Source of the DNA: Marsupella aquatica
Taxonomy: Eukaryota > Plantae > Marchantiophyta
DNA: 64,000 bases
Assembly (NCBI GenBank): GCA_973895155.1
Contig: OZ316895.1
Coordinates: forward strand, 8,730,184-8,794,183
Direction: 5' to 3'
Under the pieces are notes generated by a model. That model saw only the letters and a list, made by a program, of their open reading frames with translations. It was not told the origin of the DNA and searched no databases. Shown in pieces: positions 24,757 to 56,792 of this stretch (the first letter of the stretch is position 1; each line of letters opens with the position of its first letter). The position numbers were made by a program, and so were the translations under genes.

Positions 24757-24809
24757 CATCACCCCTACCAAACCTGTGCATCCTCCGGTATGCACCACAC
24801 CTAGAATCG

Positions 24810-27800: not shown

Positions 27801-28143
27801 CTGCTGGTCTCACTTTCTTCTCCACTGTTTTGTACTTGGTGTTGACCTCAACAAATTGAGACAACTCGCCATACAGCTCATGATTGATTTCCATATGAGC
27901 TTTCCCCTCTGAAAGACCTTCAATTATTTCTTTCAAAGATACTTCTACTCCTTCTTCATCTAGAAGGCCTTCAATCTCTTCACTTTCCTCTAGCAATCCA
28001 TGTATTTGCATAGTATCCTCAATCCTTGCAATTTTCTTTTTGAATTTTTTAGTAGCTTCACACACTTTCACATAAGAAATTCGACAATGCAAGCTTTCAC
28101 CTTCAAATGAGCTTGCCAACAAACTATTCACATTCCAAGTCAC
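24810..28143 (-). CDS. pol: Gypsy pol (RT, RNase H, integrase), frameshifted
   Basis: LPQGATNS, PFLDD, VDSS..A, DCLPL, ADMLSR, GHRG...CESC, TTAYNPEGNGKIER, RWRGPF; split across ORFs 27628-28143, 25637-27631 and 24810-25568. Confidence 0.92.
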
Positions 28144-28184
28144 CAGCGGGTCATTGGCGATGGCGCCCCGCCTTCCCGCATTGC

Positions 28185-30827
28185 TTAACGAGACGCCTTC
28201 CGGAAATCCTCATTTCCCTCCTTGGGTTCAGGTCCTCTCAACTCCTTCCGATTCCTCCAATGTCCAGGTTTCACTACATGAAATTGGATAACCCGCAATT
28301 CATCCCGACTCCTTACCTTTGCCATATGAGTGCCATCTGGTAGGACCTTGTACTCCATTCGAGCTTGAGTAATGTAAGGCTGCCCTAGAATGAGATCATA
28401 GGGCAAGCTATCATGCACAAAGATGTTAGTTGGTTCTATCACATGGCCAACCTTCACTGATACTCCAGGGCATCCTCCCCAAAGCATATTCTTTGAACGA
28501 TTGATTGAGTTGACAGACCATTGAGTATCACAATCAATCATCCATTGCCCAAGATCATAGATGCTTCTTGACATTAGATTCACCTCAGATCCTGTGTCAA
28601 TCAATGCTCGAGCTTTGCCCTCCATTCCTACAAGCTCTACCTCCACAACTGAGCAAGTTCTTGCCCAAAACGGCTCCAAAATGGACTCCTTGCCGTCTCC
28701 TGAATCAGAATTCTTCATAGCTGAAGCACACATGACCCACACACTTTGTGAGGCCTTGAGCACCTCTTCACGACTAATTTTTGCCATATCCTGGGTCACT
28801 GCAAATCCTGTTGTTGCTTTCGCCAATGGTTTCCACCTCTCCAATACCTCAACTCCTGACATCTTTGGTTCAAGAACTTCCTTTGTTGAAGACCCTAGCA
28901 TCTGTGGTCTGGGGATCTTCTCCGCATTCACTTGATACACTTCACACTCCACACTGGCTTGAGAAACAATTGAACCTTCTCCATCTTCATCAACATCAGA
29001 AAAAACCTCCATTCCCAAGGCATGAGGTCCTTCCTTGTAAAATCGTTTTCGTTTCACCTTTGCAAGTAATGCATCTTGAGCCTTGGAGTTCATGCAAGCA
29101 AAAAACTCCTCATTGGTGACTCCGCTCACCTCCGCTTTCCAAAACTTCTCAGCAACTTGATCATACGCAATGTGTTGCTCAACATCTCTTCCAAGGACCC
29201 AACCAGGTCCTTTCTTTTCCACCTTCTCTTTTTTTACCACTTCCATCTCCTTTGAGGATGAAGGAGTCGAAGTAGGCTCCTTTGTTGTACTTCCTCTATC
29301 TTCAAATCGAACACTCTTCCTTGTTGGGACTCTTGATGATGGCTGCAAAATAGAGGGTCCAGGCTCAACCTTTTGTTTTCCTTTGGCACGTTCTTCCAAA
29401 GGTTCCGACGACTTTCGTTTCTCCTCTACCATAGAATCCCATAGCGATCCCACTTCTGCAGTGAAAGAAGAGATCAACACTGGATCACTCCAACCTGACT
29501 TCCTCCTTACAAACTCTGCTAGTCTCTTCTTGTCTGTCTCTGTTGACGAAGAACTCCCAAAGAGGGTGTAAACATCTGCTTCATGCTCATCCTGATCTCC
29601 AAAAGCTGCTGCAATGGCTGAAGTATGATGTCCAGTCATTCTTCTCTCCACCAACACCTTCATACCGCCCTTGTTTGTGTTTACTAGAATAAGCTCTCCT
29701 GAATCATGATAAGCAAGCTTTCTTATGCCATCATGATCAATGAACTTGACTATTCTCTCTCTCAGAGCAACAGAAAGCTCCCCACATTCACGCCTTGAGT
29801 GCTCCTTACTATCACACCAAATACAATTCCAACTCCTTGCTCCGCCAATGGAACTCCCGGCTCCTGGACCACCTCTTGACGCTGGTCTTGATGCACCTCC
29901 TCCCATCTGCTCGAAGGCTTGGGTGGCAAGAATGGTAAGATTTTTCATGAGTTTAGACAACTCATCTATTTTGTCCATGCTTTTCTCACCCCTACCAGTT
30001 GTTGACTCTATTTTCTCCATTCTCCTCATAGAAGTCACAGGTGCAACCGCATGTAGAGCACCTTCATGACTCAGCTTTTTTCTTCTATGCTTTTGGCTGA
30101 CCCTAAGCACAGCAATCTCAATCTCCTCCCAAGTTGGTGGACTGGCTCCACGACTTGGGTTCATCAATTCCAGAGCAAGCTCCAACTCGTCTTGAAGCTT
30201 CTCATCAGCAGCTCGGATAAGTAAAGTAGCCTTCTGTACCTTGATAACTTCAGAACCAATCTCAGGAAGCTGATTGAACTTCTTCGTAAACTCCCTTATC
30301 AGTTCTTGAGGTCCCAACTTCTTGCTTCTATCGGCCACCCAATCAAGGAAAGATGCTTGAGTAACCCGATCTGGATCTTCAAGCTAAAATTCTTCTTTCA
30401 TCTTCAACTCAAAGACCTTCCATGCTTTCTCCCCAGTAGCTCCATCTATCAAGGTAGTAACAATTCCCTTGAGTTCAGGTTCTACTAAAGATACAAACTC
30501 CTTGACTGCAACTTCTGCATCAATCTTATGAATTGTAGCCTCCGTCCAGTACCCCTTGAGATACTTGGTTACATTTCGCCCATCAAATTCTCCTTGCTTG
30601 GTAAGAACCGAGTGTAGGTACTTCGTGGTCCTACCAAGCAACTCCTTCTTCTTGTTCTCCTCCATCTCCTTCTCCTTCATTCCATGTAAGTAAGCAGCAA
30701 TCAAGGATGAAAACCTCTCCATGTCAGTTGGATTCATCTCAGTTCCCATGATTGCAATTCTTCCCTCTTGACTTAATAATATAAATAAGTTAAGAACTGA
30801 AAGTTCCAAAACCATATCTCTCTTCAT
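28185..30827 (-). CDS. gag: Gypsy gag-protease, one premature stop near 30384
   Basis: EFDGRNVTKYL capsid-like start, zinc knuckle CIWCDSKEHSRREC, aspartic protease ALIDTGSEVN and DLILGQP. Confidence 0.9.
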
Positions 30828-30896
30828 TCATTAGAACTCAAACATGCATAAGCTAACTTCCAAATCCAGCGGTATCCCCAGTATGGTCGCCACTTA

Positions 30897-32054
30897 TGTC
30901 CGGGTGACCGTGTTTTCTAGCAATAGCATGTTGGCTCTTTTGAAGTTAACCTTGCATGCTTATAAGTTCTACACTAAAATCAAAATGATAATTCTAGTAA
31001 CAAGGGTAGTGGGTATTAAGAAAGGTTTAGGTGAAACTAAAATACTGTTAAACCCTATTTCACCATACTTGCGGACCAACACATCACAAAAATTAGTTTT
31101 CTTACGACATATGATCCTAATATCTCCAAGAGAAAATGAAACAGGAATATCATTCGGACTCCTATTCAGATCCATGACTTCAATAAAGGACAAAGATGAT
31201 GCACTCCCACTCCTCTCGGTACGACACCACTGGGTATATTATTGGCTCGTTAGAAACCATAACAGCAGTTGCAAACTGAGCTCCAAAATGATAGGTTAGA
31301 TGTTGCCTCATAGATGGTTTGTCTAAAAGATGGACTCTAATCAAAAACGGATTACGAAGGGGAAGATCAGGGATAACTCTCTCTCCTGGATTCATGATGG
31401 CTCTTCTATTCCTTTGCTATCCGGGCCAAAGGACGCCCCACCCCTATATTCCCAAAGAAACCTTATTCCCTAAGGTCCCATCTATAAATCTACCACTCAT
31501 TCCTTTGCTATCCGGGCCAAAGGACGCCCCACTACTATGTTCAAGGCACAAAAGAGCTTCACAACCTTGAATGATAAACACTGCGGAGTGAGGGGAGAGT
31601 GCCCCTCACCACTTTATTTATAGTGCACACCAAGAGGGCATGGATCAAGCCCAAGCACTTGGATGAAGGCCAAGTGTCAAACATCTAATACCTAAGAGTG
31701 TGCTAGTACTATTCATAGTTGGTGAAACTACTTTTAGTAGGTGGAACTACCATGCGTTGGTGGAACTACTATGCGTTGGTGGACCTACTATGCGTTGGTG
31801 GACCTACTGTGCATTGGTAGAACTACTATGCGCTGGTGGACCTACTGTGCGTTGGTAGAACCACTATGCGTTGGTGAATATTATTGTAGTTGGTGGAACT
31901 ACTCACATGCATTGGTGAAACTTCTATAGTCCGTTAATATAGCTAAAGAAGTTTAATAAAGTTTAAATTTAATAATCTAACTACTAAATTACTTATATAA
32001 TCTATAGCATATTAAAACAAACAATTTTTTATAACTTAAGAGAAAATCACGACA
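30897..32054 (-). repeat. 5' LTR of gypsy element
   Basis: Direct repeat of 23599-24756; followed on the minus strand by the PBS at ~30875-30892. Confidence 0.97.
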
Positions 32055-34738: not shown

Positions 34739-35309
34739 CTGCGCATTACAATAACACTAGAATAAGTAAACAAATTCTTATGAAACTAGGACTTTTATAT
34801 GGACCTTCAACACAGTGACGGACCAAACGAGAAGTGTGACCACACTTCTTGTTTTGCCCGCGGCGAAAAAAGTTTCTAAGGCAAAAAGTCCTGGATACGG
34901 AATTAGTATTCCCCCCTAAAACTAGTTTTTCGGTTTCAAAAAATGGGAAAAATCGAAGTGAATACGAAGATGGGATACGGCGTATCCCATTTCGGATCCA
35001 ACTCCGGAATTCCAAAAAAAAAAAACCAAACGTAGTAAAAGTGCCGATATTGTTTTACCTGTTAAGAATATTCCCAAACAATTCTTCTCAACAGTAACAT
35101 TTAACCGACTGCGCTGCAACTGCAGTCAAATACTAACCACGGTCAGGGAGAAAACTATAAATAGGAGATCCCTGCTTGAAATTTTTTTGCTCATTTCTTC
35201 TCGCTGTCTATCCTCTTCCTCTCAACGAATGCCCACCGTCTATACAAACTCGTATTCCCCGAAAATCAAATTTGACTAACAGGTGAGAATCTTCATGCAA
35301 ATGGCGAGG

Positions 35310-35765
35310 ACAAATCCCAAATGGGATACGGCGTATCCCGTTTGGGATTCAACCTTCAAATGTCCAATTTTTGTTTCTGTTTAGTTGAAAAAGGAGGTTG
35401 GATGCGAAGTGGGATACCCCTCTGAATATGAAGTATCTTAGCCTCCAACTGTCAAAACCTCAACGTTGAATGCGAAATGGGATACGGTGTATCCAGTTTG
35501 GGATTCGCCCTTCAAATATCCAGTTTTTGTTTCTCTTCAGTGAAAAAAGGATGTTGGATGCGAAGTGGGATACGGGGTATCCCATATCGCATCCAACCTC
35601 CGAATAATAAGTATCTTAGTCTCCAAATTGCAAAACCTCAATGTTGAATGCAAAATGGGATACGGCGTATCCAGTTTGGGATTCAACCTTCAAATGTCCA
35701 AATTTGGTTTCTCTTTAGCTAAAAAAGGAGGTTGGATGCGAAGTGGGATACGGCGTATCCCATGT
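35310..35765. repeat. Array 1 of ~45-bp palindromes (core TGGGATACnnnGTATCCCA), ~88-bp period
   Basis: Five full copies and one half copy, inside a predicted intron (GT at 35283, AG at 35828); one more copy at 34970-34990. Confidence 0.9.
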
Positions 35766-36464
35766 GGTATCTCCCTAGAGTTTTCTTGGCATGGGAAAAA
35801 TCTTATGAATTGCTGATTGTTTCGCAGGCAAAGTTCAACTAAACATGCACTGAAGCTCTTGCTGCCTTTCAGTGACTCAAGCTTTTGCTTTCCTGGAAAA
35901 ATGACATTTTCTCTTGTGAGTCTAATGGCGGTCCAGAATCAAAACCTTGAGAAACGTGCTCGTCGATTGTATAAGCGATTAGTTGCACTCAAAGTTCTCC
36001 GTCCTGGATTAGGAGTGCTATGGACGGGAGGCGTGGATCCACATGATAGTTTGAATCCACTCCGAATAGAGTTTTGTGAAAAAATGAAGACGGAGTTCCG
36101 ATTCGGTCGAGGATATGTTTGAGTGGTTGTCTGCACTCTGTTAATTCTTCTTGTAATTATTGTCGTGATGCCCGAAACAAATATCATCGATTAGCATATT
36201 TGTGTTGTCGGATTTGGAACGAAGATCCTTGGGTTAACTTATTGCGTTGAATCTTCTTGATTAGTGTGTAAGTATTCAGGTGAACGTTCTTGGGTCAAAA
36301 CTTTTGTGAATATATTTTTCTTTTGATCAAAGAAATAAAATCAGTTTTTCTATCACTGTTTTGTAGGTTGCTGAGAAAGTGCTCACCATCTCATTTATTA
36401 CTCCAGGTATCCACTCTTATTTTGGAATGGCCGTCACTGAGAACCCTGTCTTTACAGGTTAGCG

Positions 36465-36965
36465 ATGTCATTCGACATAGAGAAGAAACAAATTCAGCAG
36501 AAAAGTGGCCAAAGGGAATCCAGATTGCTTTTGGATGGACTTCCTGATGAGATTGTTGAAACGTTCATTTGACCCATTTTGAAAGTTTGTTGTATAGAGG
36601 ATGAATTTGATTCCTCCAAGAACCAAGCTGATGAAAGATTGATGCGATTAAAAACAATGGTGTGGCTTGGATGCACCTCCAAGAAATGGAACCAGCTCGT
36701 AATTTGTACACGAGTCTGGGGTATTCTTAGACTAGCAAGAAGCCAGTTTGAGGAAGAAAATGAAATGCTGACAAGCATTCCCGATGGAAAACCCCTTCAG
36801 AATGTTCATATTGAAGCTTCTGTTAGGATGGAAACACCAAATCTTCCTCCAATCGATTTCTTAGGTTTATTTTCAAGGTCTGACCTAAATCGATTTCAAG
36901 AACACTGGCACAATCTTGAGAAAGATGAGCAAGCAAGGCTCTTGGAAATGTATGGGGAAGCTTAG
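36465..36965 (+). pseudogene. F-box-like protein with one premature stop (36570-36572)
   Basis: MSFDIEKK...LLLDGLPDEIVETFI*PIL...LGCTSKKWNQLV fits the F-box pattern LP.EI...I...L...V(C/S)K.W; TGA is likely derived from TGG. Confidence 0.55.
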
Positions 36966-37249
36966 AGCTTTATTTTGTGGCACAATTCTGGATGAATAAA
37001 GAGTTTTGTGATTCTACCCTTACATCAACCCCATTCGCTAAGCGTAAAATCTATTTGGTTTAATCCAGGGACGTGGGGATATGCCTCTCAAGTCCTCTCA
37101 AGCGAAAAAAGTATAAATAAACCTCTGGACTCCAACCCTCCGCTTTTGGATTCACCTTATCGCCTGTGTATACGAAGGTGATAAAGTATAAATAGCAGTG
37201 CCTGGTTAGAAAGTGCACGCTCATTTCTTTTCCTTCTCAACTTCTCCTT

Positions 37250-37866
37250 GCCGTATCCTCCTTTGCATTCAACTCTATTCTTTGCACTTCTGTTCAAAGA
37301 ACATAACTTTTCAATGTTGAATACGAGATGGGATACCGCGTATCCCATCTCGCATCCAACACCCTCTTCTTAGTATTCCATCGGAACCTCCTGGCTGTTT
37401 GTTGACTTTGAATACAAAATGGGATACCGCGTATCCCATTTCGGATTCAACTACATCTCTCTGGTCTTTTATTGCAGAGTACTAGAAATTCCTGATGTTT
37501 AGGGTTTAGCGCCTTTGCGGAGGATCATTGCAAAAAGAGCCGCATTGGATGATGTTGGATACGAACCGGGATACCCCGTATCCCATTTCGCATTCAACTT
37601 TCTATTTTTTGTTCTTTGCATCAGACTAGGGAATTGTTGACGTTGGATGCAAAGTGGGATACCTCGTATCCCATTTCAAATTCAATTCCCTATTTTTTGT
37701 GTTTTGTATCAGACTCGAGGCAATTGTTGAAGTTGGATGCAATGTGGGATACCGCGTATCCCATTTCGCATTCAACTCCCTATTTTTCATTCTTTGCATC
37801 AGACTCTCGGCAGTTGTTGATTTTGGATGCGAAGTGGGATACTGCGTACCCGATCTCGCATTCAAC
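37250..37866. repeat. Array 2 of ~45-bp palindromes upstream of the ParB-MTase start codon
   Basis: Six full copies, e.g. 37316-37360 GTTGAATACGAGATGGGATAC-CGC-GTATCCCATCTCGCATCCAAC. They lie between a TATA box (~37187) and the acceptor TTTACAG at 37911. Confidence 0.92.
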
Positions 37867-37915
37867 TACTTTTGTATGTTTACGCCCTGGTTCTGTGTCA
37901 ATCTTTTACAGGAAC

Positions 37916-40900
37916 ATGTCGAACAAATCAAAGTCGTCTGGTTCGACCGAATCTTCACGGACGTCTATCGTCGATGAGATTTGGAAGAAGGACCTTTACA
38001 CCGAGGAGAAACTCGTGAGGAATAGGTGGTACTTCAGGGATGCCCGGGCGATGGATATTCACAGAGCCTATGACGGTCCAGCGGTGTGGTTGGTTATAGT
38101 TAAGGGTAAAGACCATTGCCATTATGGATTAGTCGTGGACACTGGGGAGGCAGATATCACCGACGCAAAAACCAAACAGCTGAAGAAGATTCTAATGTAC
38201 CTTTGCATTCTTCCGAACAATGCCTTCACTGTAGTTGTCCTCAACTACGAGAAACTCGATCGGGTCTCGATGAACACATTTCCTGATGACCCGATCTGCA
38301 AGCTAATTTCGGACAAAGATTGATGACTTTTCTTATTGGTGTTTGAAATTTGTCTTGAAGTCTTGGAGGGTTGTTGAGGAACTTACCAAGGTAGCATATA
38401 GGTCCGTCATTGGAGCCAACTTTGGCGTCAAAGAGCGTCCTCTGAAGTTGAAAGTGACGAAGCCTACCGATCCGGCTTCGAAGTCAGGGGAGATGTCTAG
38501 AACACCCTCGATAAAGGAGAAATCTGCCATAGTTTCTTTTAAGGAACCGGCAAAAGGAAGCTTGCAGATCAACTCTCCGGGGAAGGTTCTAAAGCAGCGG
38601 TGTCAGGAGAAGCTGCTGGCAAGAAGAAATTGGATCGACGTGACATCCAGAAGCGCGCACCATCTGCACCCGGAAGTGTTGTCTCATCTTTGGTCCCAAC
38701 AATTTCACAAACACCATCTCAGATTCCTTCAACTTCATCAGGTGGGCCTTCTCTATCATCTAGGGGTGTTGTGAAAGAAAAGAAAAACGATTCAACAGAT
38801 ATCACCACAGCTTTGCAGCGGGAAGAGACACTTGTGGTTCATGAAGAAGTGTCTCGGTTGATGGAGACCAAGAGAGTTCAGAAGACAATTGTTATTCTGA
38901 AAACAACTAACCTGCTTCTTGTTGACGATATTGACGACAAGAACTCAACTTTGGTTCGAACAGTAGATCGGTTGCATGTGGAGAACATCAAGACTTTGAT
39001 GAAAATGAATCCAACAAATTTCACCACGCCATTTGTCTTGTTTGTGATCCCCAAAGACTGCCCGACAGTGACAGATTGGGACCCAGAAAAGGCAACAAGC
39101 TGGAGATATCGAGTGATTGGAGGTAATCACGGTGCTCGGGCTAAGAGAGAATTGTATCAGGCTTATGGGAGAGAGATCTTCAATGAACTCCAAGCTTGGG
39201 TGTATGCTGGTCTCACAAGGGAGGACATTCAGAAACTTAGCATCCAACATAATATTGATCAGGAGTACAGGAAAAAAATGAACAACATTGATCAAATCCG
39301 AACAATGCATAAGATTTTCCTTGCCAGAGGTATGGCAAAAACCAAGGAGACTAGAGAAGCATGTGCGATGGAGGTTTGCCTCGACGGGTTTTTTCCGGGG
39401 GACGCCACAAGCCTAAAGAAGCATGAACCTCTCTTCCAAATTGCGTTTAGGTCGGGTAAGGTCTGGGAACTCCAAGACCAGATCTTTGAGATGTGGAACA
39501 AGTTGGAGATCAAAGGGCAGAATAAGTAGAAGTCATCGATCAAGAAACTCAAGAAAAAAGGAAAAGCGCAGTCGATTCCAAAAGCTTTGAATAAGCTTGC
39601 AGGGGGCCTTACCCTGACACCTTGGAGAGCAATCCAGGGAATTGAACACGACCAATTTTTGGAGTCCCTTCTTCTACGAGTGAAGGACCGGATGATCTCT
39701 TTGGAGCAGATGGCAAAAGAAGCCAAGAGTTACAAGAAACTTGTGAAAATCAGCAAGCTTTTTGTTCAGTTATCAGGGCAGCCACACTGGGCGACTTGCA
39801 AATAAATGTTTCCAAAAGAAATAGAATCTGCCGAGCTCGAAAGATGGAGTGGGAAGTTGTCCGATGTGGTATGTTCTCCCCTTCCATTGATTGGACTTTT
39901 CTCGGATTCACTTGTGTTTATTTGATGTTTGTGATGTTTCAATGAGGTTTTGCTTGGTCGAATGCAAAGTGGGATACGGCGTATCCCATCTCGGATTCAA
40001 TTGTGTTTATTTGACGTTTGTGATGTTTCAATGAGGTTTTTGCTTGGTCGAATGCGAAGTTGGATACGCGGTATCCCATCTCGGATTCACTTGTGGTTAT
40101 TTGACGTTGGTGATGTACCAATGTGGTTTTTACTTGGTCGAATGCAAAGTGGGATATGCGGTATCCCATCTCGGATTCACTTGTGTTTATTTGATGTTGG
40201 TGATGTTTCAATGTTGTTTTTGCTTGGTTGAATGCGAAGTGGGATACGGGGTATCCCATCACGGATTCAATTGTGGTTATTTGACGACGATGATGTTTGA
40301 ATGGGGTTTTTGTTTGGTTGAATGCGAAGTGGGATATAGGGTATTCCATGTCGCATTTGTCGTCCAGATTTGATTGTTTAAATGCCCAAATGGTTCTCCC
40401 CATTGTCTTTTCTCTGGATTCCTTTAACAAGTTTGCGTTTGCAGTTGAAAACTTTTTCGAAGAAGAAGAACAATGATGCAATTGGTGCCGATGCGGTTGA
40501 GAAGCCTTCGGAGGAGCTGACTTCGAGTGTTATTCCCCGGGGTTTAAGAATTATGTTCAAGAAGCGATTGAGAACTACAACCGTCATCGTGGGATTGAAA
40601 CGGTTGAAGCAGAGTCGAGTGACCATCGATGGAAAAATGCTGATGGAAATTTCATCAGATATACATTGCATTGTGGAGATGTCAAGGCGCTGGATAAGTT
40701 TGTAGAGAAAAGGAATTACACACTTGCAATTGGAGACATTCCCTATGGATTCAATGCGCTTGGCTCCAAAAATGATGAGGTCCCATTTTCAGAGAGTGAT
40801 ATTGTGGATATGGTGAAGTGTTTTGCCAAGGTGACAAGTTCAAAGATGTGGAGGTTTGTTGTGATTCACTCTTTGCAGCAAACTTGGTCTGTGATGAATG

Positions 40901-41538
40901 CCCTGGGAAAAACTTGTAATGCAGGTGTAGAGGCTGGAATTTGGGAGAAGCCAAATGTACATGCTCATCCTTCGGGGAATCGATTGGCTTGGGCTTTTAA
41001 AAACTGGTCAATCGGATATTATCACGAGAGTGGTATTAGGACCAGAGACATGTACAATTTTGAACATGATGAGAAAAGGGTAAACATCATAAAAGTCCCT
41101 TATGTTACAAAGAAATGTGTAACACCATTGGGGGAAATAGTGAACCCTTACCAGAAGCCGATAGCTCTAGCAGATTGGTTCATTCAACATTTTAGTGAAG
41201 CAGGGGATTGGGTTGCTAATTTATGTGCGGGGAGTGGTTCGACCTCATGCGCTGCCTTGTTAGGGAAACGTCCGGTGACAGCCGTGGAGCTCAGTTCAAG
41301 CCAGGTGGATTGTATCCGGACCCGACTTGTCACGCTGGATGAATCGTGGGACTTGAATGATGAAGCAACAGAGGAGGGTACAGGACCCATAAGCTTCAAG
41401 GTTCAACCACCTATTGGTGGTACTATGAGCACCCTGACCACTGGAACTTGCATCATTACAACCGCGGAGGAGAACAACAATGATGAGGATAAAGAGGATG
41501 AAGTGGAACATGAAGCTCCGACACTTGATCTTGGCTAG
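37916..41538 (+). pseudogene. ParB/Srx-like domain fused to a beta-class (N6-adenine/N4-cytosine) DNA methyltransferase
   Basis: ParB-like RTVDRLHV...PFVLFV...YRVIGGNHG...QAWVY in ORF 38600-39529. Intron 39869-40444 (phase 0). MTase LHCGD, motif IV-like LAIGDIPYG, then YQKPIAL..WFIQHFS..GDWVANLCAGSGST..AAL.GKR...VEL (motifs X-I-II), i.e. beta order. Lesions: frameshifts at ~38317, ~38580 and ~40535, stops at 39527 and 39803. Confidence 0.85.
39900..40360. repeat. Array 3 of ~45-bp palindromes (89-90-bp tandem units x5) inside the ParB-MTase intron
   Basis: GTCGAATGC(A/G)AAGTGGGATACGGCGTATCCCATCTCGGATTCA(A/C) repeated at ~39957, 40047, 40137, 40227 and 40317. Confidence 0.93.
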
Positions 41539-41665
41539 TTCCTTGAGGTGTAGACTTTAGTTTAATTAGTTCTCTCATGTTGTATCTATTGATCCAAACT
41601 TGTGAAATATTGAGGAAGATTATGATTGGACTATGTTCTTATTTCACAAAGTAATATCTTTGCAG

Positions 41666-42576
41666 GAACCAAAGGAGGATTTTTTATTGAAACATGTTCT
41701 GCATAGATTCTCACACAATCCTTCTAGTGGGTTTCTTTTGGACAATAAAATATTGAGCCAACTTGAACCCGGTCAATATTTGGGTGATGAAATAATGGAA
41801 TTTTACCCACAATTAATAACCGAGGAACATGGAGATCTGGCTCCCTCAGTAAACACATTATCCTCTTTTTTTTACCCTTGGCTTATTTCAAGGACTGAAA
41901 CAGAACCAGCTGAGACCTTGTTGGAATCAATTCAAAAGATGCAGAATTATTACAAGCCACCATTTTCCCAAATTGAGGTCATTCTCATGCCAATTCACAT
42001 GAACATGCACTGGAGTCTGGTTGTAATATGTTTGGATCGGATTGAATCTTCGATCAAAATGTATCATCTAGACTCTCTTGCCGGTCTATACTCAACCCAT
42101 GTAATTGGATCAATACTGAGCAGGTATGTATATATTCTATTATATTTTTTCCATTTTAAATTATTTATGTGGTATATAAATATAAACACTTTGGACTAAG
42201 AACTTGAATGATAATATGCAGATATTTTACAATGGAATGAGAATTATTTTTTGGAAAAGTTCCAATGGGAGTTGTGGAGATTTACAATCCAATGGTAAGG
42301 ATTTGAAAAGTTATTTCAACTTTTATTTAGTTCAATTATTAAACACTTTGGACTAACTTTAAGATTCTTTCTCAGGTACCTCAACAACCAAACAATTCAG
42401 ATTGTGGTCTATTTGTTCTTCAAAATATGGATGAAATCAGAATTCAATGGCATATTACACAATGCCTTGATGCACAGTCTTTATTTACCAAAAAATGGTA
42501 CAACTCTAAAAGAGCATGTAACCTTAGAAAATTCATTCGAGATCAAATTCTAAAATTGATGCATGTACCTGTTTAA
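41666..42576 (+). pseudogene. Ulp1/SENP (peptidase C48) SUMO-protease domain, three exons; probably the C-terminus of the ParB-MTase gene
   Basis: LEPGQYLGDEIMEFY, LSSFFY, ILMPIHMNMHWSL (His), YHLDSL (Asp), VPQQPNNSDCGLFVL (Gln/Cys). Exons 41666-42123, 42222-42294 (stop plus frameshift) and 42376-42576. Confidence 0.88.
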
Positions 42577-42587
42577 GGACATCAATC

Positions 42588-45500
42588 TCAATCCTTTGAG
42601 TGTGCAGAACCTCGCTCTAATATAGCAGACTCTATAATTTTTTTAGTTTTTGCTGCTATTTGATTAGTACTTAAAAGCGCAAAGTTGTATGCATACACCG
42701 CTGTTGATGATAGAACTAGTTCATCTTGGAGAAGTCAATTAGATATATTATCTTTCTCTGAAAAATATTTCCCATCAATAGCAGACTCAGCACTTGCCTC
42801 AGTTGTGTACCATGTGATTTTGATTCTCTCAGGAATGTCTGCAGTTCTTGTCAAAATCTTTGACACCTTTGCCATCCAAAACAACTTGCCTTCTGGATCC
42901 TTGTGTGCCGCTACACATATCATGGACCACTTATTGTTAACTTCCATATCTCTAAAATCTCCAAATTCAGCTTGCTTTCGTCGAGGTCCGGAGTACATAA
43001 TTCTCTGTGGTCCAGCAACTTTGTCAACCAAAGTTGGATCAACACCTTCTTCAACAAGTTCATTTCCCACCCTTGGAAGTAGTTGTGCACCTTGATTTTG
43101 TTGCGGCCAAACCCACTCAAATAACCACTCACCTTCCTCTAGGTGGTTTTTGATAATATCTTTTTGTTTCTCAAAAAAACTCATCCATCAAAGTTTGTCT
43201 TCATTGTCAAAGTAATTGAAACCTTCCTGAATAGTTTTTTCATATTTCACCAGAGTAGTTAACGCACCATCTGTATTGGAAGAATCATGGACATCATCCC
43301 TCTCAACACCTTTTGCTGACTTCAGTGACATTTGTGCAGCAACCCACATTCTTGAAGTTGGAATGTAATTGACAAATGTCACTGCATCTCCCCAATCCTG
43401 GGTCGTGAAAAGATATTTCACGTGGAATGTTGTCTCTTCGTTTCCATCCTCCATGACTCGTTTGAATCTGAATTGTCTTTGAAAAGTTATGAGATTGAGA
43501 TCTCTCAAGACTCTACCTGAGACTCCCTTCTCATTTGGCTGGTCGGTTTCATTGACAAATTTTCAAAAACCGGCTACTTCATCCATAAATATGATCAAAG
43601 CTTCAGGTGAATATGCTTGTCGAATAATATCCTCAAGAGTCTCCAAGCGAAATGCTTTGTGCTTGTTTAACCTAGATGAAAATTTACTAAACATCTTATC
43701 TATCTGGTCATGTGTATGACCGACCAACAAGAAACCCACTTTAATCTTGTCAAAAATCTTCAAATCTACTAACATGTGAAGATAAGCCATCAAGAATTTA
43801 TTATTGTTTCCCTAGTGCTATTATCTAATTGAAGATATAACACTCTTGGTAATGTCCCATCCCATGTATTCAATACATTTTGAATAACATGTATGGTCAA
43901 GTTTGCATCATTATGGATATTGTGATATGTCAAAAATACTTTTGCTGCAAGGTTCCTGTTGAAGATGAGACAACCTACAACATGTATTGGAATGAAATAT
44001 TTTTCATCCATGTTCTTCGGACAATGAAGAAAATGTGGTAGCTCTGTTTTCTTTTGATCCATACCATCTATACAAATACCCAAATACTTGTTGGGCTCAT
44101 CATAGCATTTTTTACGATGCTTGGCTAACTTCATCCTTTCCAATGATTGTACTTTTTGATGCTCCATAAGGGCATTGATTTACTTTCCTGAAATGATACA
44201 ATAGCAATGAATTAAAAATCAATAACTAAGGATAAACTTTGACAAATATTGAAGTACATGTCATCAAATTAAAGTTGAAGGTTATAGTTAGTGGAATTTA
44301 CTTTTATCCTCTTCAGTTGTTGCTTTGTCCCGAAGAGCCTTGAATTCAGTACAAGGACCACAAGTAGAAAATCGACTCCTTTTAGGAATTCGTACATTTG
44401 GAAACTTTTTTTCCAAACATGCAAAAAATAAGAATATGTAACTTGTTGTTCTTCTCGCAACATTGTTTCAGCTTCAAAGATTCCATGTATCTCTTGCTTT
44501 GTCCAATTGTCTGGCAAGTGATGAATCTCTTTATGGGGAAGACTATCCATATTTTTTTCGAAAAAATCTTTCAACCATTCCACTAGGTTTAGAAATGAAG
44601 GTGAGTCTTCCTTACAAAAGGTATCTCGTTCAATCCTTGTAAACATGTTTGCATGGATTGTTGTCAATCTATTATTACCTAAAGAATATAGTTTCTTGAA
44701 TCCTCCTCTACATATAGGTTGTCCATTTACACTATATCCACGAGAAGTACTACTACTGTTCATGATACAACCTCGTAGCAAAATATTTTTCTGCAAGTGT
44801 TTAAGACCAAAATAATACTTGCGTTGTTTTGAGCATTCCTTTAGACCCAGAGACCTCAAGCAAAACTTGTCACAACAGGGATACTTAAAAATATCTGTAA
44901 TTTTGCGTTTTTTTAGATTTGCAATGGTAAGTCTATCTTTTCTAATCATCTGATCTCTGATTTTTTTGCTGGGTCTTGTCACCTCTACTCTATCCTGAAT
45001 AGTGTCGGGAGAACTTACCCCCCCACTATTTTCTAGTGAATTAGAATTCAAAACAAAAAGATCTTCTGTAGAGTTGTTTCCACTCTCCACATTTTCTGTA
45101 ACTGTTTCATGAACAATCTCACATCCCAGGATCTCTTCAACAATATTTGAGATTATAGCAGTCTCTCTATCATTTGCAGCCGCCTCTGATCTCTCTTCAG
45201 AGTCTTCAGAAAATGTAATAGGTGTTCGGAGATTTCTAGTTTGAAATCTTCTAATGATATTCACATCTTCAGTCACAATACCGCCCACTTGTCTCTAAGA
45301 CTGTAATCCCAGCCTAGGTGATTCTTCTCGACTTGAGGGCTCATCTTGACCATTAAATAATCTTTGGACAAGTTTCAATTTAGCATGTGCCCTTGAATTT
45401 TTGGGCCCTCTCTCCGGCAGCTCACTTCACAACAATCTCCAAGGAATTTTCTGGACACTAGATCTCTTCCCTCTTTCGTTCTGCACTTGCCGTCCAATGG

Positions 45501-46453
45501 AAGATCCAAAAACCTCACACTGCATCCTCGCCAAAGGGCTTCGAAGCCCCATGTTGTTAGTTTGACCATTCGGTGAAATAACCGATGGGAATACCGATTG
45601 GGATCCATGGATCCCAACTCGTATTCGTCCTTCGGGACTTTGAAGTGAAAACTTTCATAACAGTAAGTGGGAAAGTAAGTGGGAAAGTAAGTGGGAACTG
45701 GGATCCACGTATCTCATTTCGCATTCCATCATCGGAACTCGGGTTGGAAGTCCGCAAGACCAGTGACTCGGGCACAGGATTCTGCAAAATACCACGAGGG
45801 AATACTAAGTGGGATCCATGGATCCCACTTCGTATTTGACCCATGAAATTGGTACTGAAGGAGACGAAGTAGGCAATTTGCATTCACCGTTTCTCAACAT
45901 TCGAGTAGGGAATACCAAGTGGCACGGATCCCACTTGGTATTTGACCCACCAAATTTGGCTTTGAGGCTGCCCCTCCCTGCAATTCCGGCACATTCGGAC
46001 TCCTCATTCGCTCAAACTGTGATTGAACACTGGACACAGCTATCTTCACTCCCGGAGAACGAGACATTGGAAAAACCAACGGAGATCTTCGGGCCTACAT
46101 GGTAACGTTGTTCTTGGCATTAAAAACTGGGGTCTTCGTCTTTGAAGATCTGTCGGGGTTCGCGGAGAACCAGGTGTCTCTGTCGTAGGAACTACATTAG
46201 GCTTCTTTACAAGTAGACGTCGTTTAAGAGGTTTACTTGGAGAGACATAGTATGAAATCGGAGCACCCACAACACTCCTACAAGACTTTGAATCGGACTC
46301 TGATTTCTCAGATTCCGAGGAAAATGAAATCTCTAGCACTACTCTCTGTGAGGCTGGTAATTCATTCATCAAACGAGATGGAATAAATTTTCGAACAACA
46401 TCTGGCAAAGATGCATCTGAACTGTAAATTGACTCATCACTTGAAGATGCCAT
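42588..46453 (-). pseudogene. Sola-like / DUF7869-type DDD transposase, spliced and frameshifted
   Basis: Cys clusters CCDKFCL, ICRGGFKKLY, FSTCGPC; catalytic motifs GICIDGMDQ, LYLQLDNSTRE, FLLVGHTHDQID. Probable first exon MASSSDES at 46453; stop at 42588-42590. Confidence 0.85.
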
Positions 46454-46992
46454 AGATAATCAAACAAGGGTTGTATAGGAGTACGTATTCCTATCCAACA
46501 GAGATACTTCAGATTATAGTATTCTATGAAAACAACTACTCAATAGTGAACGAACCTCAAAGTAATCGCGAGAAATGACGATGAAAAACAAATGCGAGCT
46601 CTTCCTTTTATAGTTTTTGGGGGCATTGTACACGTGGCATTCCCTGATTGGTCCGTACAAGGGTTTTTTCAAGTGAGAGTCTGTCTTTTCCAGGACTGCT
46701 GAAATTTAAATTGTAGATTTTCGAGGAAGTCGCCGTGGATCCGAGTTGGTCTTCAAACTGGAATATCAAGGTATGCGATGCAAAAACTTCAAAATGTAGA
46801 GGTTAAATACTAGATCCCATCTAGTATTCATCCTCCTATTTTCCCGATGAGTTTTTAGACTTGCAAAAAAAATGGGATCCATGGATCTCAGTTGGTATTC
46901 ATGTCGAAAGATCTCCTGATGCAAAGTTGCAGGTGGAAAACATTGAGGTTGAATACGAGAGTGGATACTTGGATCCCGTCTCGTATTCATCA
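45585..46992. repeat. Variant palindrome family (core TGGGATCCATGGATCCCA) around the transposase 5' region
   Basis: Copies at ~45589-45626, 45801-45836 (perfect 24-bp AAGTGGGATCCATGGATCCCACTT), 45911-45942, ~46800-46830, ~46872-46900 and ~46948-46990, with the same GAATAC...GTATTC outer arms as arrays 1-3. Confidence 0.8.
46606..46651 (-). promoter_or_regulatory. Putative Pol II promoter of the transposase (CCAAT, G-box, TATA)
   Basis: On the minus strand: CCAAT (46651-46647), GCCACGTG (46638-46631) and TATAAAA (46612-46606), in order, ~150 bp before the ATG at 46453. Confidence 0.45.
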
Positions 46993-47590
46993 TGCGTTAT
47001 GGGCTAAAAAAATTCCAAACATGTTGTCAGGTTAACTTAACTAATTGTGTGGATCGACTGTAGTCCGCGGTTAGTTTTTCGCAGTTTTTCGGTTTACCGC
47101 AGTTAAAATTTCAAATATTTTTAACCCGAGGTTAAATGGAAGCGTCAAGAGAATGATTTGGTGCGGTTTTGTCAACAGTTGAATCCGAAATGGGATACGC
47201 CGTATCCCATTTTCAGTTTGCCATTTTGAAGGCGAAAATGAAATCTTGTGTTTTCTTCATTTTGTTTGACTCTCGGATTTAGCTTTTAGAGGATCACGTG
47301 AAAAGCATTGTTTTTCTAGGTTTTGGAATTTGCCCTTTTTTTAGATGTAGTGTATCGGAATTCTGGATTGTAACAATTCTTTGTTTTTGTGTCGACAGTA
47401 TCTCAATTTGAAATCCGATGTTGGATGCGATTTTGGATTCATCCTCAAAATAGCGTTTTTGATCTTAATTTTAGTGATTTTTTGCCATTTTTCGCGAAAT
47501 CAAAAACACACTTCTCGTTTGGTGGTCATACTTCTTGTTTGGTCCGTCACTGTGTTCTTCTTTGTCTTGCAACATTATAACATTTGGTAC

Positions 47591-50500
47591 CTGTTCATCA
47601 TCTTCAGTTGCTTGGGCAACTGAAACTTCTTTGCAAGATCGTTTGTTGTGGCCAACCTTTCCGCACCTGTTGCACGTACACTTTACATTACCCCGCTTCC
47701 TTTTCTTAGGTAGGATCTGAACCATTGGGAGGCCACTCGCAGAGTTTGCACTTGGAAACGGAATGCCTCTCTCATTGTCATCATCCATTGGATATCTGAG
47801 ACACAGCCTTCCTGTTGGATCAAGATGGAGGTCCTCCCCATTCCCTAAAGCCCTGGAACAAGTTTAATTCCCCATGAATTCTTACCATTCTATGTCGCCC
47901 ATTCACTATAGCAGGCTCTGGAGCATGACAACTTAAGCTCAATGGAAGGTGAGTGGAAACAAAGCTAGGTAATACACCATCATAAAGTAAAACCAAAGAC
48001 TGTGTCCGCCAGCATTTATGAAAATGCCTAGCCGGATTCTTTCCTGTTTCATCATCCCATGCCAGCATATGTTGGCATGGCCAAACCATCTCCTGCAGCT
48101 CCATGCAAGTGCACTTTGGTTTTGGTGACAAAGTGACAAGATACTCCTCACTCCCTGTTGTAGTCTGAATTTTGGCACTGGATTGACCATCACTGAATAC
48201 CTGTAGCATGACAGTATGAAATATGAAGCGTGAGACAATCCATCCTCCACATGTGGTGAAAATGTTCGTTACAAAAGGAAAAGAAAGAGCCAATCTGCAC
48301 CTGGAATTGTTGGAAGTTCTGCAAGTTGATATTGTATCGTAGTTGAGCTGGTTTTGACAGTGGTTCTTGTCTGCATGCAACCTCTATTCTCCTGTCTTTA
48401 AACTTTGTTGAATGTACACCCAAAGAGCCACCAACAACTTTCCAGGTGCTAGTAGACGGAATGGTAATAATCCAGAATTTGCTTGCTCGGCTGGATTACT
48501 TGTGACCTTACCCATGCTAGGGAGTGGGAATGCATGCCTGGCATAACATTTCACATCCAGACCGCGGATGTAATGTGCTACATCAACTCCCTTGCCGGCT
48601 ATCAATGAACCAGACAGTCGATCTAGCACAGACTCATATCTAAATTGAAAGAGACAGAATACATGAGTGACAATGTTTACAGAGACAGAATACATCAAGC
48701 ACAATGTTTGAATAGGCAAATTGCTTTCATATTGGTCCTAGTGAGTGTATTTACTTACTGGTGCACATCATTGGCATAGACACATCCGTAGAAGAATTCA
48801 CTTGCTATTCTACCATGCCTGGTCTTCACGTTTGCCCTCAAATGATTTGCGCACTGTGCATGGATCTTTCCTACTGTCCAAAAATAATAAATTAGATTTT
48901 GTACTCGAGTTAGCACAGTATCATCATAACTCTCAAATTTGACAGAATTAAGCAATCTAAGTGTGGAAGGGTGTTACCTGGCCAAATCTGACTTACAGCA
49001 ACAGTGAGACCCTTTTGACGATCTGACATGATGACAATGTCTTGACTACCAATGCCATATACAGCTCTGTCCATTAATTCTAGAAACCAAAGCCAGTTCT
49101 CTGTGTTTTCAACTGGTGCTACTCCATAGCAAAGTATGACACCGTTTGAGTTCCCATCCAGCTAGGCATGTAGCTAAAAATAGTTGAGTTGGATATTTTC
49201 TATTCTTGGTGTGACAAGCATCTAAACTAACCATCGGCTGAGTATAGTTAAGTGCTTTCCTGGTGGCAGATGGACATATGAATGCTCTGCAAAAAATGGT
49301 GGAGTCCTCCATAGTGCACCAATGTGCAACACAACCAGGGTCTGTCTCCCGAATCCTGTCAATCAATGTTGGGATCATCTGAAAAGATGATTTCTGTGAG
49401 CCAGCGGTCCAATGCCCTACAAGATCTTTGCCCCGCCACATTTGCTGGTAGTTACTTCCTCGCTTGTAGTCACCTTGGAAACCAGACAACAATTCCTTCA
49501 CAGGCATTTTCAGATTTCTGTGAGCCAGCGGTCCAATGCCCTACAAGATCTTTGCCCCGCCACATTTGCTGGTAGTTACTTCCTCGCTTGTAGTCACCTT
49601 GGAAACCAGACAACAATTCCTTCACAGGCATTTTCAGATTTCTGATGATTCTTGGAGCCAATGTTACCCCCAACCATGCAGACTTGTGAGTAGGAGCTCT
49701 CCACTTGTGAATGTGAGCAGCACAAGTATGTGTTAGTTCACATACAGTGATAATATGACCCCCACCCTTCACTCTACTGCAACGTACTCTGAAAGGACAT
49801 TCCTCCTCTGAGTAAAGCAAGTCTTCTGGACCTGGTTGAGAGGGCTTAGATCTGGACAACTATCCACAAGCTCCAGTTGCAGATGGCTTCCTAGTTTTCT
49901 GTTGACCAGGTTTACGTGGGTGTTGCGAACCAGGTAACCAAACGCTAGTGTGTTGGACTATGGACTTTGGTCTGTTGTGCACAACTCTTCCTTGTGTAGA
50001 CAAAACAGTATTTTTGTGCACAGTTTGTTGTACAGATATAGGTGCATTTTGGTGCACGGATTGTTGTGTAGACAATGACACATTTGTCTGCATGGTGTTC
50101 GCTTGAATGGCTGAAAGCGGTGCACGAGGTTGCTGACGAGCAAGAGTGATCTGATTAATGGCATTATGAAATTGACGATCTTCAATCTGCAAAACCCCAT
50201 GATTGTACACACCAAGAATTTGAGCAAGTGATTGTAGGATGTCCCAAAATAAAAAAGGGTGTGGCATTGGTGGCAGTGGCAGCGGCAGCACACACCTCTG
50301 CTTGACTGCGATATCTATTCTCTTGTTGTGTAGTTTGCTGCAATGTCTGAGACCTTGGTCCTTTCGATCGTCTTCCACTCCAATGGCCATATCTGCTATG
50401 AAACTCATGCTCACCTTCTGACTCTTCATCCTCTTCCTCAAATTGAAGCTGCCACTAGTTGGTTCCTCCGTAGCATGTGAACCAATGTTGTCATTGTCAC

Positions 50501-52592: not shown

Positions 52593-53852
52593 CGCTCTCT
52601 GTTGCAGATTTCTCTCTCTTGCAATCCTCAAGTACGTGTCATCATCTCTCCCTCTCTTATGCACGCCCATCACTATAGCAATCTCATGTCGGGGTCGGCG
52701 TCGAACTTGGATTTCACTATGGAAATGTAGATGGGATCACAGTATATTGTCAGCACTTTCATTCTGCTTTGGCTTGAATTGCTCTAATCTTATACACTAG
52801 TATTCTAGTGTGCAAAAGTGTTGTGCAGAACTAAGGTGGGGTGCGGGGGGTTTTTCTTTGCCTTTGCTGAGCTGCGATTTCAACTCAACGGTCCTGTCCT
52901 TAGTCGCTTAGTGCTTATTTGTGTCTTGCAACAACTTTTTAGACCTGCGCGCTTGCAATGCTTGTACTTTCAGAATCCCAGACTTTAGAGTATACTCTTG
53001 TACTGTCAATGACTAAATTAGAAGTTATTACGCGCGCCCTATATGCTTCACTTGTGTCTTTGGAGGCTTTCGGATTAGAGGTTGCACAAAGCATGGATGT
53101 CATAGCCCTAAACTTCAAATTTTCCTGCATGCAATTCTACCTCTACATTCATGTTTCGGCAACAGGAAGAACGCAAAGGGAGCAGGTCACTCTTCCATTG
53201 ACTACTTTGCCACTGTATGTATTCAATGTACAGGACATTAGTCAAATGTGATGTACTCTATAATGTACTCCTCCACGGACAACTAATGAGCCACAGAACT
53301 GATGAGCCACACTCTGTCTATGGCACTTGCAGATCATTTTTCCACCCGTTCGAGAGCTTTCTCTTTTGCCAAGCTAGGCACAAAGAAATCATTCCAGGGT
53401 TTTGTCAACTCTTGAGGTTTGTAATCACTCAGAGCCCTCTACATTGTCATTGCTTTGTCTGGGATTTGATTTTATGTATGGGGCGTCGATTGTATTCTAC
53501 TGGCCTTCTTGCTGTGCTGAGCAATGTCCTACTGTGGACTTTTGAATTCTTCTGCTGGTTCCCCCTATTTTTGTGGCCCCCAAAATTTATAAAAATTAAT
53601 GTGTGAAAATGCTAGCCCAACAATTGTCCACCTTTAATGGCAAAAATTGTTCAGTAATTGCCTGTGTCCAATCTCAAAGTCCTAAACTTAAAATTTCCTC
53701 CATGCACACAACCCGTCTTGAATTTACAGCTTGAAATTACAGTTTCTCAAATCTTTGGTATTAATTCATAGTTTTAGTTTCTCATTCCTTGCATGCGTCA
53801 CTACGTCACTGACTCTGGCCATATTGTGTTGTTTTCTGTCGGGGTAGAAGTC

Positions 53853-54575
53853 ATGGCTCGTCCAAAATGGCCAGCACGTAGAGGCGGATCACAGGTGAGG
53901 CACCATTCCATGAGTAGACACCATCATTGGTCCAATGCACAAATTCATCAGAAAGCCGCTCAGGTTTGTGCCATTTGTGACAATGGAGGTGACCTGGTCA
54001 TGTGTGATGGCCCCTGCCTGAGACAATTCCATGTCAATTCCTGGTCCACTTATGCACCACATAATACATGCCCTGGGGTTGGGCTCCGGGGGGACCATCG
54101 GGGTGCTTGGACTTGCTTTGATTGTGCCACTAATATCAGCAAGTGTGCTCAATGTGGCACAAACGGCACTGTTGGGGGGGATCAACCAGAGCTGCGGAAA
54201 TGTCCTGACAGGTTTTGTGTTTGTTTTTTTTGTTTGACATGCCTGCCCCATGATAACTCTCTTTTCCCACTACATATTTGTCCTGCTTGTGGGGAGCCTG
54301 ATGATGACTACTGGATAGTCATGGTCCATTGTCCCAGATGTCCCACAGCCTGGCACCATGAGTGTTTACTAGCCCTTCAGGCAGAAGGGTATGCATGTGA
54401 CCGCCAAATTTATTCCCACTCTGCACACGGGGTTGATAGGTGGTTTTTGTATTGCCACCTCCATACGATTGACCCTCATTTGCAGACCCCTGCGAGAGAC
54501 CATTTGACTTGGCTATTGCTGGATGACACCTCCAGCGCCAGCAACAAAACAAGTGGATCAGCACCAACAGGCTGA
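53853..54575 (+). CDS. EDM2-like composite (triple) PHD-finger protein, intronless, CACTA cargo
   Basis: CAICDNGGDLVMCDGPCLRQFH...CFDC...CAQCG...PLHICPAC...CPRCPTAWHHECL...LYCHLHTID..LQTPARDHL parallels the PHD region of plant EDM2 (CAICDNGG, CRRCPK.YH.KCL, TP.RDH). Confidence 0.75.
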   Translation: MARPKWPARRGGSQVRHHSMSRHHHWSNAQIHQKAAQVCAICDNGGDLVMCDGPCLRQFHVNSWSTYAPHNTCPGVGLRGDHRGAWTCFDCATNISKCAQCGTNGTVGGDQPELRKCPDRFCVCFFCLTCLPHDNSLFPLHICPACGEPDDDYWIVMVHCPRCPTAWHHECLLALQAEGYACDRQIYSHSAHGVDRWFLYCHLHTIDPHLQTPARDHLTWLLLDDTSSASNKTSGSAPTG

Positions 54576-55455
54576 GCAAAATGAATCCAACATTTCACAT
54601 CTCACATTTTGGACTTTTTAATGAAGTGGGCACCTCACTGCACTGTCTACCATAGCTCAGAGACACCCCGCTACAGTGAGCTGTCGATCGGCTTTGTGAC
54701 TGCATAGTAAATTTGGATTTTGATTTTTCAGTTCAGCCATACATGGTTCTGTCCTTATACTTTCGTACACGATGACACCTCAAAAACTAAGTTAACTTAT
54801 ATTTTGAAGACTGATTAAGTTAATTGCAATTTCAAAGTTAGGGCCTGCACAAGGATGTCTGTGTTTTTTCCACTTTCAGTGTGTATGGTAAGAGACCATA
54901 ACTGTGAAAGACTAAAGATTCCAAGCAGACTGTTGCCTGGAGTAAAACAACATGCATGCATTGGAGTATGAAAATACATATATAGCTACCATTATGTATT
55001 TGTTTCGGCTCTTAACAAAGGTCATCTTAAGTCGTGTGCCTGACCCATATATTTGTACAATTACAGATGTGACTGGAAATTGGACAGTTTAATGATATCA
55101 TTCTCAGTCCCCACCACTGTCACGTAAGATACAGGTATTCGAATGTGAATTCAGGCTATATGCAGACAGGACAATATAAAGGGCCACATGTATACTGAAG
55201 CAGGCTGTCGTTCTACGTTCATCAATGTAATTACATGAACACATGGTGAAAATAATTTGACTTAAGAGTATATGGTTTGTCCTATAACTCCGTGTTGGGA
55301 TTTACTGCATGTACTGACTTTCGATCCTGTCATGTGGGCCACAATCAGGGAGCTAGAGTGCACTTTGTGTCATCAGAGAGCATTGGGCTGAAGCATTAGG
55401 GACAGGCAACACGGGCACTGGTATTTCTCTATTGGCTTTTATTACAGGAGGCATC

Positions 55456-56385: not shown

Positions 56386-56792
56386 GGTCTCAACTGTCCG
56401 TATGCTAGACGGTTACATTTTTGAAATAAAGTTTTGTGTGTTATTTTTGGTCTATAAGACATTACTCCTTTTCATCCTCCAAATGTCTGGGTTTTGCATT
56501 TGGAGATGTATGGCAGTGTATGATGTACGTTGTACCATTGACTGGTCAATGACCAAGCACCTCACTGATTATAGCAAGTCTGTTATGATGTTGCTGCCTG
56601 CAGTGAGCAGATGATACGTGAGCAGGTCGGGCGCCAGCACAGAGCGGACTTGATAGTGAGTGTACACCGTGTCTGTGATATTTCCTTCATGAAACTTGCA
56701 TGTGTCCCTCCATGTACTTAGAATATGCAATTGTATAAGCCTGTCTAGTGCAAAGGGTACATAGCCAAGGTGTGCCTACGACAGTTGAAGGT

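Follow-up and report, generated by a model that had tools for sequence, protein, structure and literature searches.

In a 64,000-nucleotide stretch of the Marsupella aquatica genome (contig OZ316895.1, positions 8,730,184 to 8,794,183 of the forward strand; hereafter the window), we find a Sola1-like DNA transposon with an accessory gene that we read as dead, in which a ParB-like region is spliced to a DNA methyltransferase (MTase) and a Ulp1 protease has been added and probably spliced on as at least one isoform. We give this reading a rough probability of 0.55. The parts of the gene, in window coordinates, are:

37186..37196 (+), TATA-like box before a pyrimidine-rich stretch, the likely accessory-gene promoter as judged from its sequence
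37916..39868 (+), exon 1 of 651 codons, comprising an N-terminal domain, a low-complexity linker and the ParB-like region
39869..40444 (+), phase-0 intron, GTATGT...TTGCAG, with the same donor and acceptor position in 5/5 relatives
40445..41553 (+), beta-class amino-MTase exon with DIPY (40735), NLCAGSG (41218) and an acidic tail
41548..41665 (+), putative intron of 118 nt, 70% AT, GAG/GTGTAG...TTGCAG/GAA, splicing predicted
41666..42576 (+), Ulp1/C48 protease encoded by three exons (41666-42123, 42222-42294, 42376-42576)

Once reading-frame breaks are allowed for, exon 1 (651 codons), the MTase exon as far as the proposed donor (368) and Ulp1 (243) give 1262 codons, close to the joined frame of about 1250 amino acids proposed in a preliminary description of this DNA. 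The exon and intron coordinates given there between 37916 and 42576 were all found in the sequence, as were TTC CTT GAG/GT at 41548, TGCAG/GAA at 41665/41666 and the variant motifs DIPY and GNHG, the latter as GGNHG at 39119, with ParB DNA-binding-domain-like helices near 39608. The ATG at 37916 stands directly behind the acceptor TTTTACAG, and the sequence upstream is a likely 5′ untranslated region (UTR) intron. Exon 1 is broken near 38316 and at 38554, 39527 and 39803; the MTase exon contains a frameshift at 40534, a TAG at 41536-41538 and a stop at the ancestral position (TAG, 41551-41553). As sister copies we used variant contigs from four runs (X1-X4) in two studies, and in all four runs they carry an additional G after 38554 and an additional C after 40534. 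The proposed restoration of the frame by indel and C-to-T correction stands for these two bases and fails at 41536, where the change is a two-base one specific to this copy. Sister copies had been predicted to read CAG at that codon and instead read TCA (depth units: X1, 280/280; X2, 9129/9250; X3, 5605/5605; X4, 2255/2255). As TCA makes up essentially all of the depth in four runs, the TAG is private to the window copy, in agreement with the earlier reading of this stop as only apparent. The unspliced frame closes four codons past 41538, at GTG TAG (41551-41553), a position overlooked earlier. The breaks near 38316, 39527, 39803 and 42238 are placed by comparison with homologues and are not among the sister differences listed (40 of 1211 substitutions and 12 of 73 indels).

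The junction between the ParB-like region and the MTase is shared with relatives. A metagenome scan yielded five loci (L001-L005) from 34 pattern matches; these lie on contigs with a common name prefix and so do not count as independent samples. In all five, a ParB-like exon (45-47% identity over the main matches) lies upstream of an MTase exon (54-57%), the GT donor and the CAG acceptor both being in phase 0 and matching the window in position. One homologous protein (P0046) is continuous across the junction without an intron, and the claim of a phase-0 join through 39869-40444 is well supported. Twenty proteins stored from the ParB searches match the MTase profile on the same chain. Given the conserved intron, the intronless homologue and the MTase fold described below, a two-domain fusion of a ParB-like region with a beta-class MTase is well supported by sequence and model. 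The profile has 792 matches at E 0.001 among 1.84 billion representatives; the named ones of the twenty come from Chara, Riccia, Adiantum and Ginkgo, with Holothuria (sea cucumber) as a cluster member. Synonymous sites are saturated in 14/15 MTase pairs and 6/6 ParB pairs, with nonsynonymous divergence (dN) of 0.13-0.50 overall and 0.13-0.39 for the MTase, and the sole unsaturated pair (L004/L005) has a ratio of nonsynonymous to synonymous divergence (dN/dS) of 0.06. By these sequence comparisons the accessory gene evolves under purifying selection. No longer MTase relative was found among 729 candidates, which is weak evidence.

Two further observations concern the architecture of the protein. 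Its N-terminal domain is conserved (window 37916-38320 against L002 619-1044, 25% identity, E 8.5e-9) and has no Pfam match. The distant homologues P0116, P0132 and P0201 are built differently: one Chara model contains two ParB-MTase units, and a SAM domain and a Tudor-like tail also occur. Gene-model artefacts may explain these differences.

The predicted MTase fold is that of a beta-class DNA amino-MTase. A model built from 26 sequences reached a mean predicted local distance difference test score (pLDDT) of 60.5, with 70-94 in the core; a single-sequence fold was poor (pLDDT 35). Compared with CcrM, the model gave a Foldseek E of 7e-11 and a Z of 17.1 (root-mean-square deviation 3.7, 208 aligned), recovering a Rossmann MTase fold, and the top 11 structural matches are all DNA amino-MTases. 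The motif IV strand (42-48) ends in DIPY, and the motif order is permuted, with motif IV before motif I. Among 23 aligned homologue rows motif IV reads DIPYG (20), DVPYG (2) or NIPSG (1), three further rows being gapped; D-x-P-Y is thus kept in 22/23. The exact DPPY or SPPY form was not found in the window gene, and DPPYG occurs in the distant members P0208 and P0212. DIPY is, by this alignment, the norm of the family. An Asp-first motif IV hints at N6-adenine over N4-cytosine, a rule of thumb that is not firm, and from this motif N6-adenine is the likely target. In the rotifer N4CMT the second motif residue is described as contributing a main-chain carbonyl (PMC10406627), so the Ile in DIPY need not abolish activity. 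The window copy shows further likely damage in the MTase, such as N for D in motif I. MTase patterns matched nothing in viral contigs, and tblastn returned phage methylases at 22-26% identity only, with no ParB beside them in the two neighbourhoods viewed; because of these weak matches and ParB-free neighbourhoods we do not name a donor lineage.

The ParB label for the exon 1 region is likely, judged from matches of its homologues. No family matches the window sequence itself significantly. A phage ParB-like family, phrog_1033, matches the GGNH region (P0050 69-190) at E 7.8e-5, with 3/25 members matching at E 1; HTH_ParB matches L003 at E 7.8e-4; and Spo0J residues 152-196 match homologues at E 0.15-0.39, a signal lost with a wider profile. 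With the ParB profile there were no matches in NCBIfam, by tblastn against phages and plasmids, in prokaryote genomes or in PDB (wider profile). ParB CTPases carry an arginine patch, GxxRxxA. This patch was not found here: GGNH is invariant in 25/25 rows and is followed by G, S or R, which makes CTP use doubtful.

The Ulp1 domain is the part that relatives lack. It matches Pfam C48 at 47.8 bits (cut-off 20.7) and SENP2 at E 4e-8, with catalytic residues in the regions of 41996 (His), 42065 (Asp) and 42382 (Gln/Cys) and the motifs PIHMNMHW, YHLDS, PQQPN and DCG; apart from a single TGA at 42238 it looks functional by sequence. In 5/5 relatives the MTase ends with an acidic tail and TAG, the window equivalent being GAG GTG TAG (41545-41553). 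The spacing from the MTase to the tail of the transposase is about 360-490 nt in L001, L003 and L004, compared with 1182 nt for the matching window segment. This difference, with the absence of Ulp1 from relatives, points to a family-specific insertion between the stops of the MTase and the transposase, in which Ulp1 replaces the short 3′ spacer of the relatives. The Ulp1 exon had no match among 250 stored proteins; other Ulp1-bearing Sola families could exist.

The Ulp1 sequence opens at a phase-0 acceptor, and its conserved residues begin before the first ATG of the exon. The segment upstream is intron-like (118 nt, 70% AT) and has indels in one sister contig. The donor at 41548 is weak but joint best among the 29 phase-0 GTs in 40600-41640, and it precedes the old stop by 3 nt. 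Only 1/19 homologues has an E/K/Q/R-V pair among its final five residues, so a phase-0 AG/GT at this distance from the old stop is uncommon. The donor at 39869 is strong and also in phase 0, so that a skip from 39868 to 41666 fits as well. Ulp1 would thus probably need an upstream coding donor in phase 0, the candidates being 41548 and, with the MTase exon skipped, 39869, and we lean slightly towards a triple ParB-MTase-Ulp1 isoform having been made. Of the three-domain chimera first proposed, the ParB-like/MTase fusion stands through its conserved intron and fold; the chimera is not ancestral, the relatives stopping at the homologous TAG without Ulp1, and the triple protein is plausible.

The gene lies in a transposon copy with definable ends:

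34809..47556, whole Sola1-like DNA transposon copy of 12,748 bp, with terminal inverted repeats (TIRs), target site duplication (TSD) and empty-site joint
34805..34808, left TSD, CTTC (right copy 47557-47560)
34809..34843 (+), left TIR of 35 nt, starting AACAC (right arm 47522-47556; 94% complementary)
42588..45294 (-), DUF7869 transposase, broken, running tail to tail against the accessory gene, 5′ extent uncertain

X1 and X2 contigs contain the empty-site joint 34804^47557, at which 4 letters are shared, and X2 has nine loose ends at 34809. All 30 bins are covered by many variant contigs in four runs, which indicates a multi-copy family. The stop of the transposase (42588-42590) is 11 nt from the Ulp1 stop, and its sequence contains DUF7869 matches and the Asp-bearing motifs IDGMD, LQLDN and GHTHDQID. 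Sola elements are described as having a 4-bp TSD and TIRs (PMC10741241), both present at 34809-47556, and a table row for Sola1-1_Ec32 gives an AAC terminus (PMC12477816). The TSD and terminus fit a Sola1-like element, the transposase being assigned by its DUF7869 matches. This copy of its transposon is dead. A CACTA/Chapaev reading with CAC termini was rejected: no duplication matches those ends, and CTTC matches the AACAC ends. A SWIM zinc finger piece (47823-48383, minus strand, E 0.0017) adjoins the right end, and the transposon may have inserted into a MuDR-like repeat; the observed empty sites could then be other copies of that repeat. Within the element, an open reading frame (ORF) of about 167 codons with one TGA (36462-36965, plus strand) has an F-box-like start, LDGLPDEIV (Pfam F-box E 0.49), and is possibly a third cargo gene.

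The element contains 18 palindromes of the form GGGATAC-NNN-GTATCCC in units of about 90 bp, with none elsewhere in the window at 2 mismatches. The preliminary description mentions neither these arrays nor the Sola1-like element whose accessory gene this is. All are in non-coding sequence:

34972..35761, six palindromes near the left end (left arm)
37330..37852, six palindromes inside what is likely a 5′ UTR intron, whose acceptor lies just before ATG 37916
39971..40347, five palindromes in the ParB-MTase intron
47192..47208, one palindrome near the right end

Relatives have the same placement with a different sequence: L001, L002, L004 and L005 share one type (6, 16, 8 and 5 sites), and L003 has a type of its own (20 sites). 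The three types are mutually exclusive over the six loci, without cross-matches, and the type shared by four loci persists though synonymous sites are mostly saturated. ParB-like identity is 81% between L002 and L004, which share a type, 62-66% to L003 and 46-48% to the window; the palindrome type changes where the ParB-like region is more diverged, three classes being too few to prove co-evolution. CpG is better preserved close to the sites: CpG:GpC counts are 120:123 up to 400 bp from a palindrome and 50:97 at distances over 1.5 kb (p = 0.003, cores masked). A second repeated palindrome, TGGGATCCATGGATCCCA, occupies 45640-45930 near the 5′ part of the transposase gene.

Several known systems resemble parts of this element. 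The closest by description is Sola1-1_Ec32 of Ectocarpus, which is reported to carry a 1104-aa ParB-like and N4C/N6A MTase gene opposite its transposase, with self-binding and self-modification proposed (PMC12477816). Common to it and the Sola1-like window element are giant size, AAC.. termini and a 4-bp TSD; the window element differs, in a comparison by description, in its plant host, the Ulp1 cassette behind the MTase and the palindrome arrays that differ between families. In the red-algal Plavaka elements, the ParB-like protein PAG3 is encoded next to tandem inverted repeats, and the proposal is that it binds and modifies the element it comes from (bioRxiv 10.1101/2025.02.11.637652). According to that text, PAG2/PAG3 share with the present gene a transposon accessory ParB-like protein, repeat arrays alongside and an N6A methylase; they differ in that the host is EnSpm/Plavaka, two separate genes carry ParB fused to a 2-oxoglutarate oxygenase and the methylase fused to SET, and the text describes no Ulp1.

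VANC of VANDAL is described as targeting motifs in the element's own non-coding parts, and some of these elements carry a captured Ulp1, KIU (PMC13317346). Motifs in non-coding parts and Ulp1 capture are common to both, and the present gene would also share a self-targeting protein with Ulp1 probably on its chain. In that account VANC/KIU differ in having a Mutator-like (MULE) host and another way of binding DNA; the effect of VANC is hypomethylation, and the account is silent on any MTase. The window element also has TIRs, a 4-bp TSD and a DUF7869 transposase in place of the non-TIR MULE host of KIU, and the likeness is convergent rather than one of membership.

In fold and motif order the MTase resembles CcrM, M.MboIIA, M.RsrI, rotifer N4CMT, M.PvuII and Marchantia MpDN4MT1; unlike these beta-class enzymes it has DIPY for DPPY/SPPY, a ParB-like fusion and a transposon host. 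MpDN4MT1 itself is described as having TSPPY and making N4-methylcytosine (4mC; bioRxiv 10.1101/2021.02.12.428880). A helix-turn-helix of the ParB type joined to a chlorophyte-type Dam is a comparable eukaryotic fusion with an N6A MTase; this Dam is given as a group-2 MTase of chlorophytes and chytrids (PMC4738411), whereas the MTase here is circularly permuted (beta class). We found no report of Ulp1 with ParB-MTase or with a Sola1 element in the open-access literature, and none of palindrome covariation with ParB-like proteins in the literature searched.

On the preferred reading, of an accessory gene with Ulp1 joined to ParB-MTase, the ParB-like region would dock on the element's own palindromes, the MTase would mark nearby DNA, likely at N6-adenine, and the tethered Ulp1 would strip small ubiquitin-like modifier (SUMO) from host silencing proteins. 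The family may thereby escape silencing, by analogy with what is proposed for algal ParB-MTase genes and with what VANC and KIU do in VANDAL. A fuller version, which we hold only tentatively, is a single three-domain anti-silencing protein with family-specific parS-like docking, a bacterial-type N6-methyladenine (6mA) self-mark and SUMO removal; the KIU design would then have been reached independently from prokaryotic parts, and ParB-palindrome pairs would form a diversifying recognition code between families.

These readings have to be weighed against others, two of which concern the join of Ulp1. There may have been no three-domain protein, but a ParB-MTase of about 1020 aa ending at 41553 together with a ParB-Ulp1 of about 894 aa made by splicing 39868 to 41666. 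This is a possibility that we take seriously and think rather unlikely. Both junctions are in phase 0, the donor at 39869 is strong where that at 41548 is weak, and the ancestral TAG is retained; however, it requires a polyadenylation site in the 112-nt gap between the TAG at 41551-41553 and 41666, in which no AATAAA or ATTAAA occurs. Otherwise the MTase message would have its stop upstream of two introns and would be a likely target of nonsense-mediated decay. We consider it improbable that Ulp1 was captured as a passenger that sits in the 3′ UTR or has its own transcript and is never joined to ParB-MTase. While its absence from all informative relatives and an in-frame ATG at 41633 in the window copy would suit a passenger, that ATG reads TTA in three X3 contigs (loose ends), the gap contains no TATA word, the acceptor at 41666 is in the right phase, and the catalytic residues and two introns look intact.

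The palindromes, for their part, might be transposase or host-factor sites, with no self-targeting by the accessory protein and an MTase that is perhaps a non-catalytic binder; we judge this doubtful. It would account for the single palindromes near both ends (34972, 47192), and the replacement of the arginine patch by GGNHG and of DPPY by DIPY in motif IV is in keeping with it. Yet most palindromes lie in accessory-gene introns and flanks, kilobases from the ends, in 6/6 loci, and both the retention of D-x-P-Y among homologues and the main-chain role of the second motif residue as described for N4CMT (PMC10406627) speak against this reading.

Several observations weigh against the reading we prefer. 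The TAG at 41551-41553 is retained at the ancestral stop position. Ulp1 is absent from 3/3 relatives reaching the transposase, namely L001, L003 and L004 (L002 and L005 end too soon), and a C48 domain was found in 0/41 long homologues, no Ulp1-centred homologue search having been made. The donor at 41548 scores 4.0 bits, compared with 7.6-11.9 for the eight training donors (self-scored), and both junctions in the window family (39868^40445 and 41547^41666) are predictions from sequence. One X2 contig (depth 121 of 9250) lacks TCA at 41537-41538. ParB-type matches are weak, colinear and confined to homologues. Coding status confounds the CpG gradient, which was not seen in L001, and the window copy is decaying at methylation contexts (16/26 hand-picked transitions at CG/CHG).

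The remainder of the window holds other repeats and gene fragments; its CACTA and Gypsy elements, like the named homologues of the accessory gene, fit a land plant as host. A Gypsy-type long terminal repeat (LTR) retrotransposon at 23599-31932 encodes reverse transcriptase, RNase H and integrase, with long direct repeats 7298 bp apart and a 19-bp tandem array. At 53778-63500, PHD and BRCT ORFs, perhaps a gene carried as CACTA cargo, precede a CACTA transposase (tnp2, DUF4218, DUF4216) and a 408-bp tandem array. Fragments of a PQQ-type beta-propeller gene are duplicated at 2476-5400 and 11243-14190, about 9 kb apart and 84-91% alike.

A ParB-MTase on a Sola1 element was already known from Ectocarpus, as described in the source cited above, and the addition of Ulp1 is what the window family contributes. 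Self-targeting by a transposon ParB-MTase has so far only been proposed, in algae, and this family makes the idea testable: three palindromes occur with three diverged ParB-like proteins, so a swap can show whether eukaryotic transposons have a ParB-palindrome code and whether they write a non-host DNA mark. If the idea is true, the spread of homologues across Chara, Riccia, Adiantum, Ginkgo and sea cucumber would mean that plants have a transposon-borne source of 6mA or 4mC. Should Ulp1 have been joined to the ParB-MTase, the family would repeat the step from VANC to KIU and would point to SUMO removal as a general aid against silencing.

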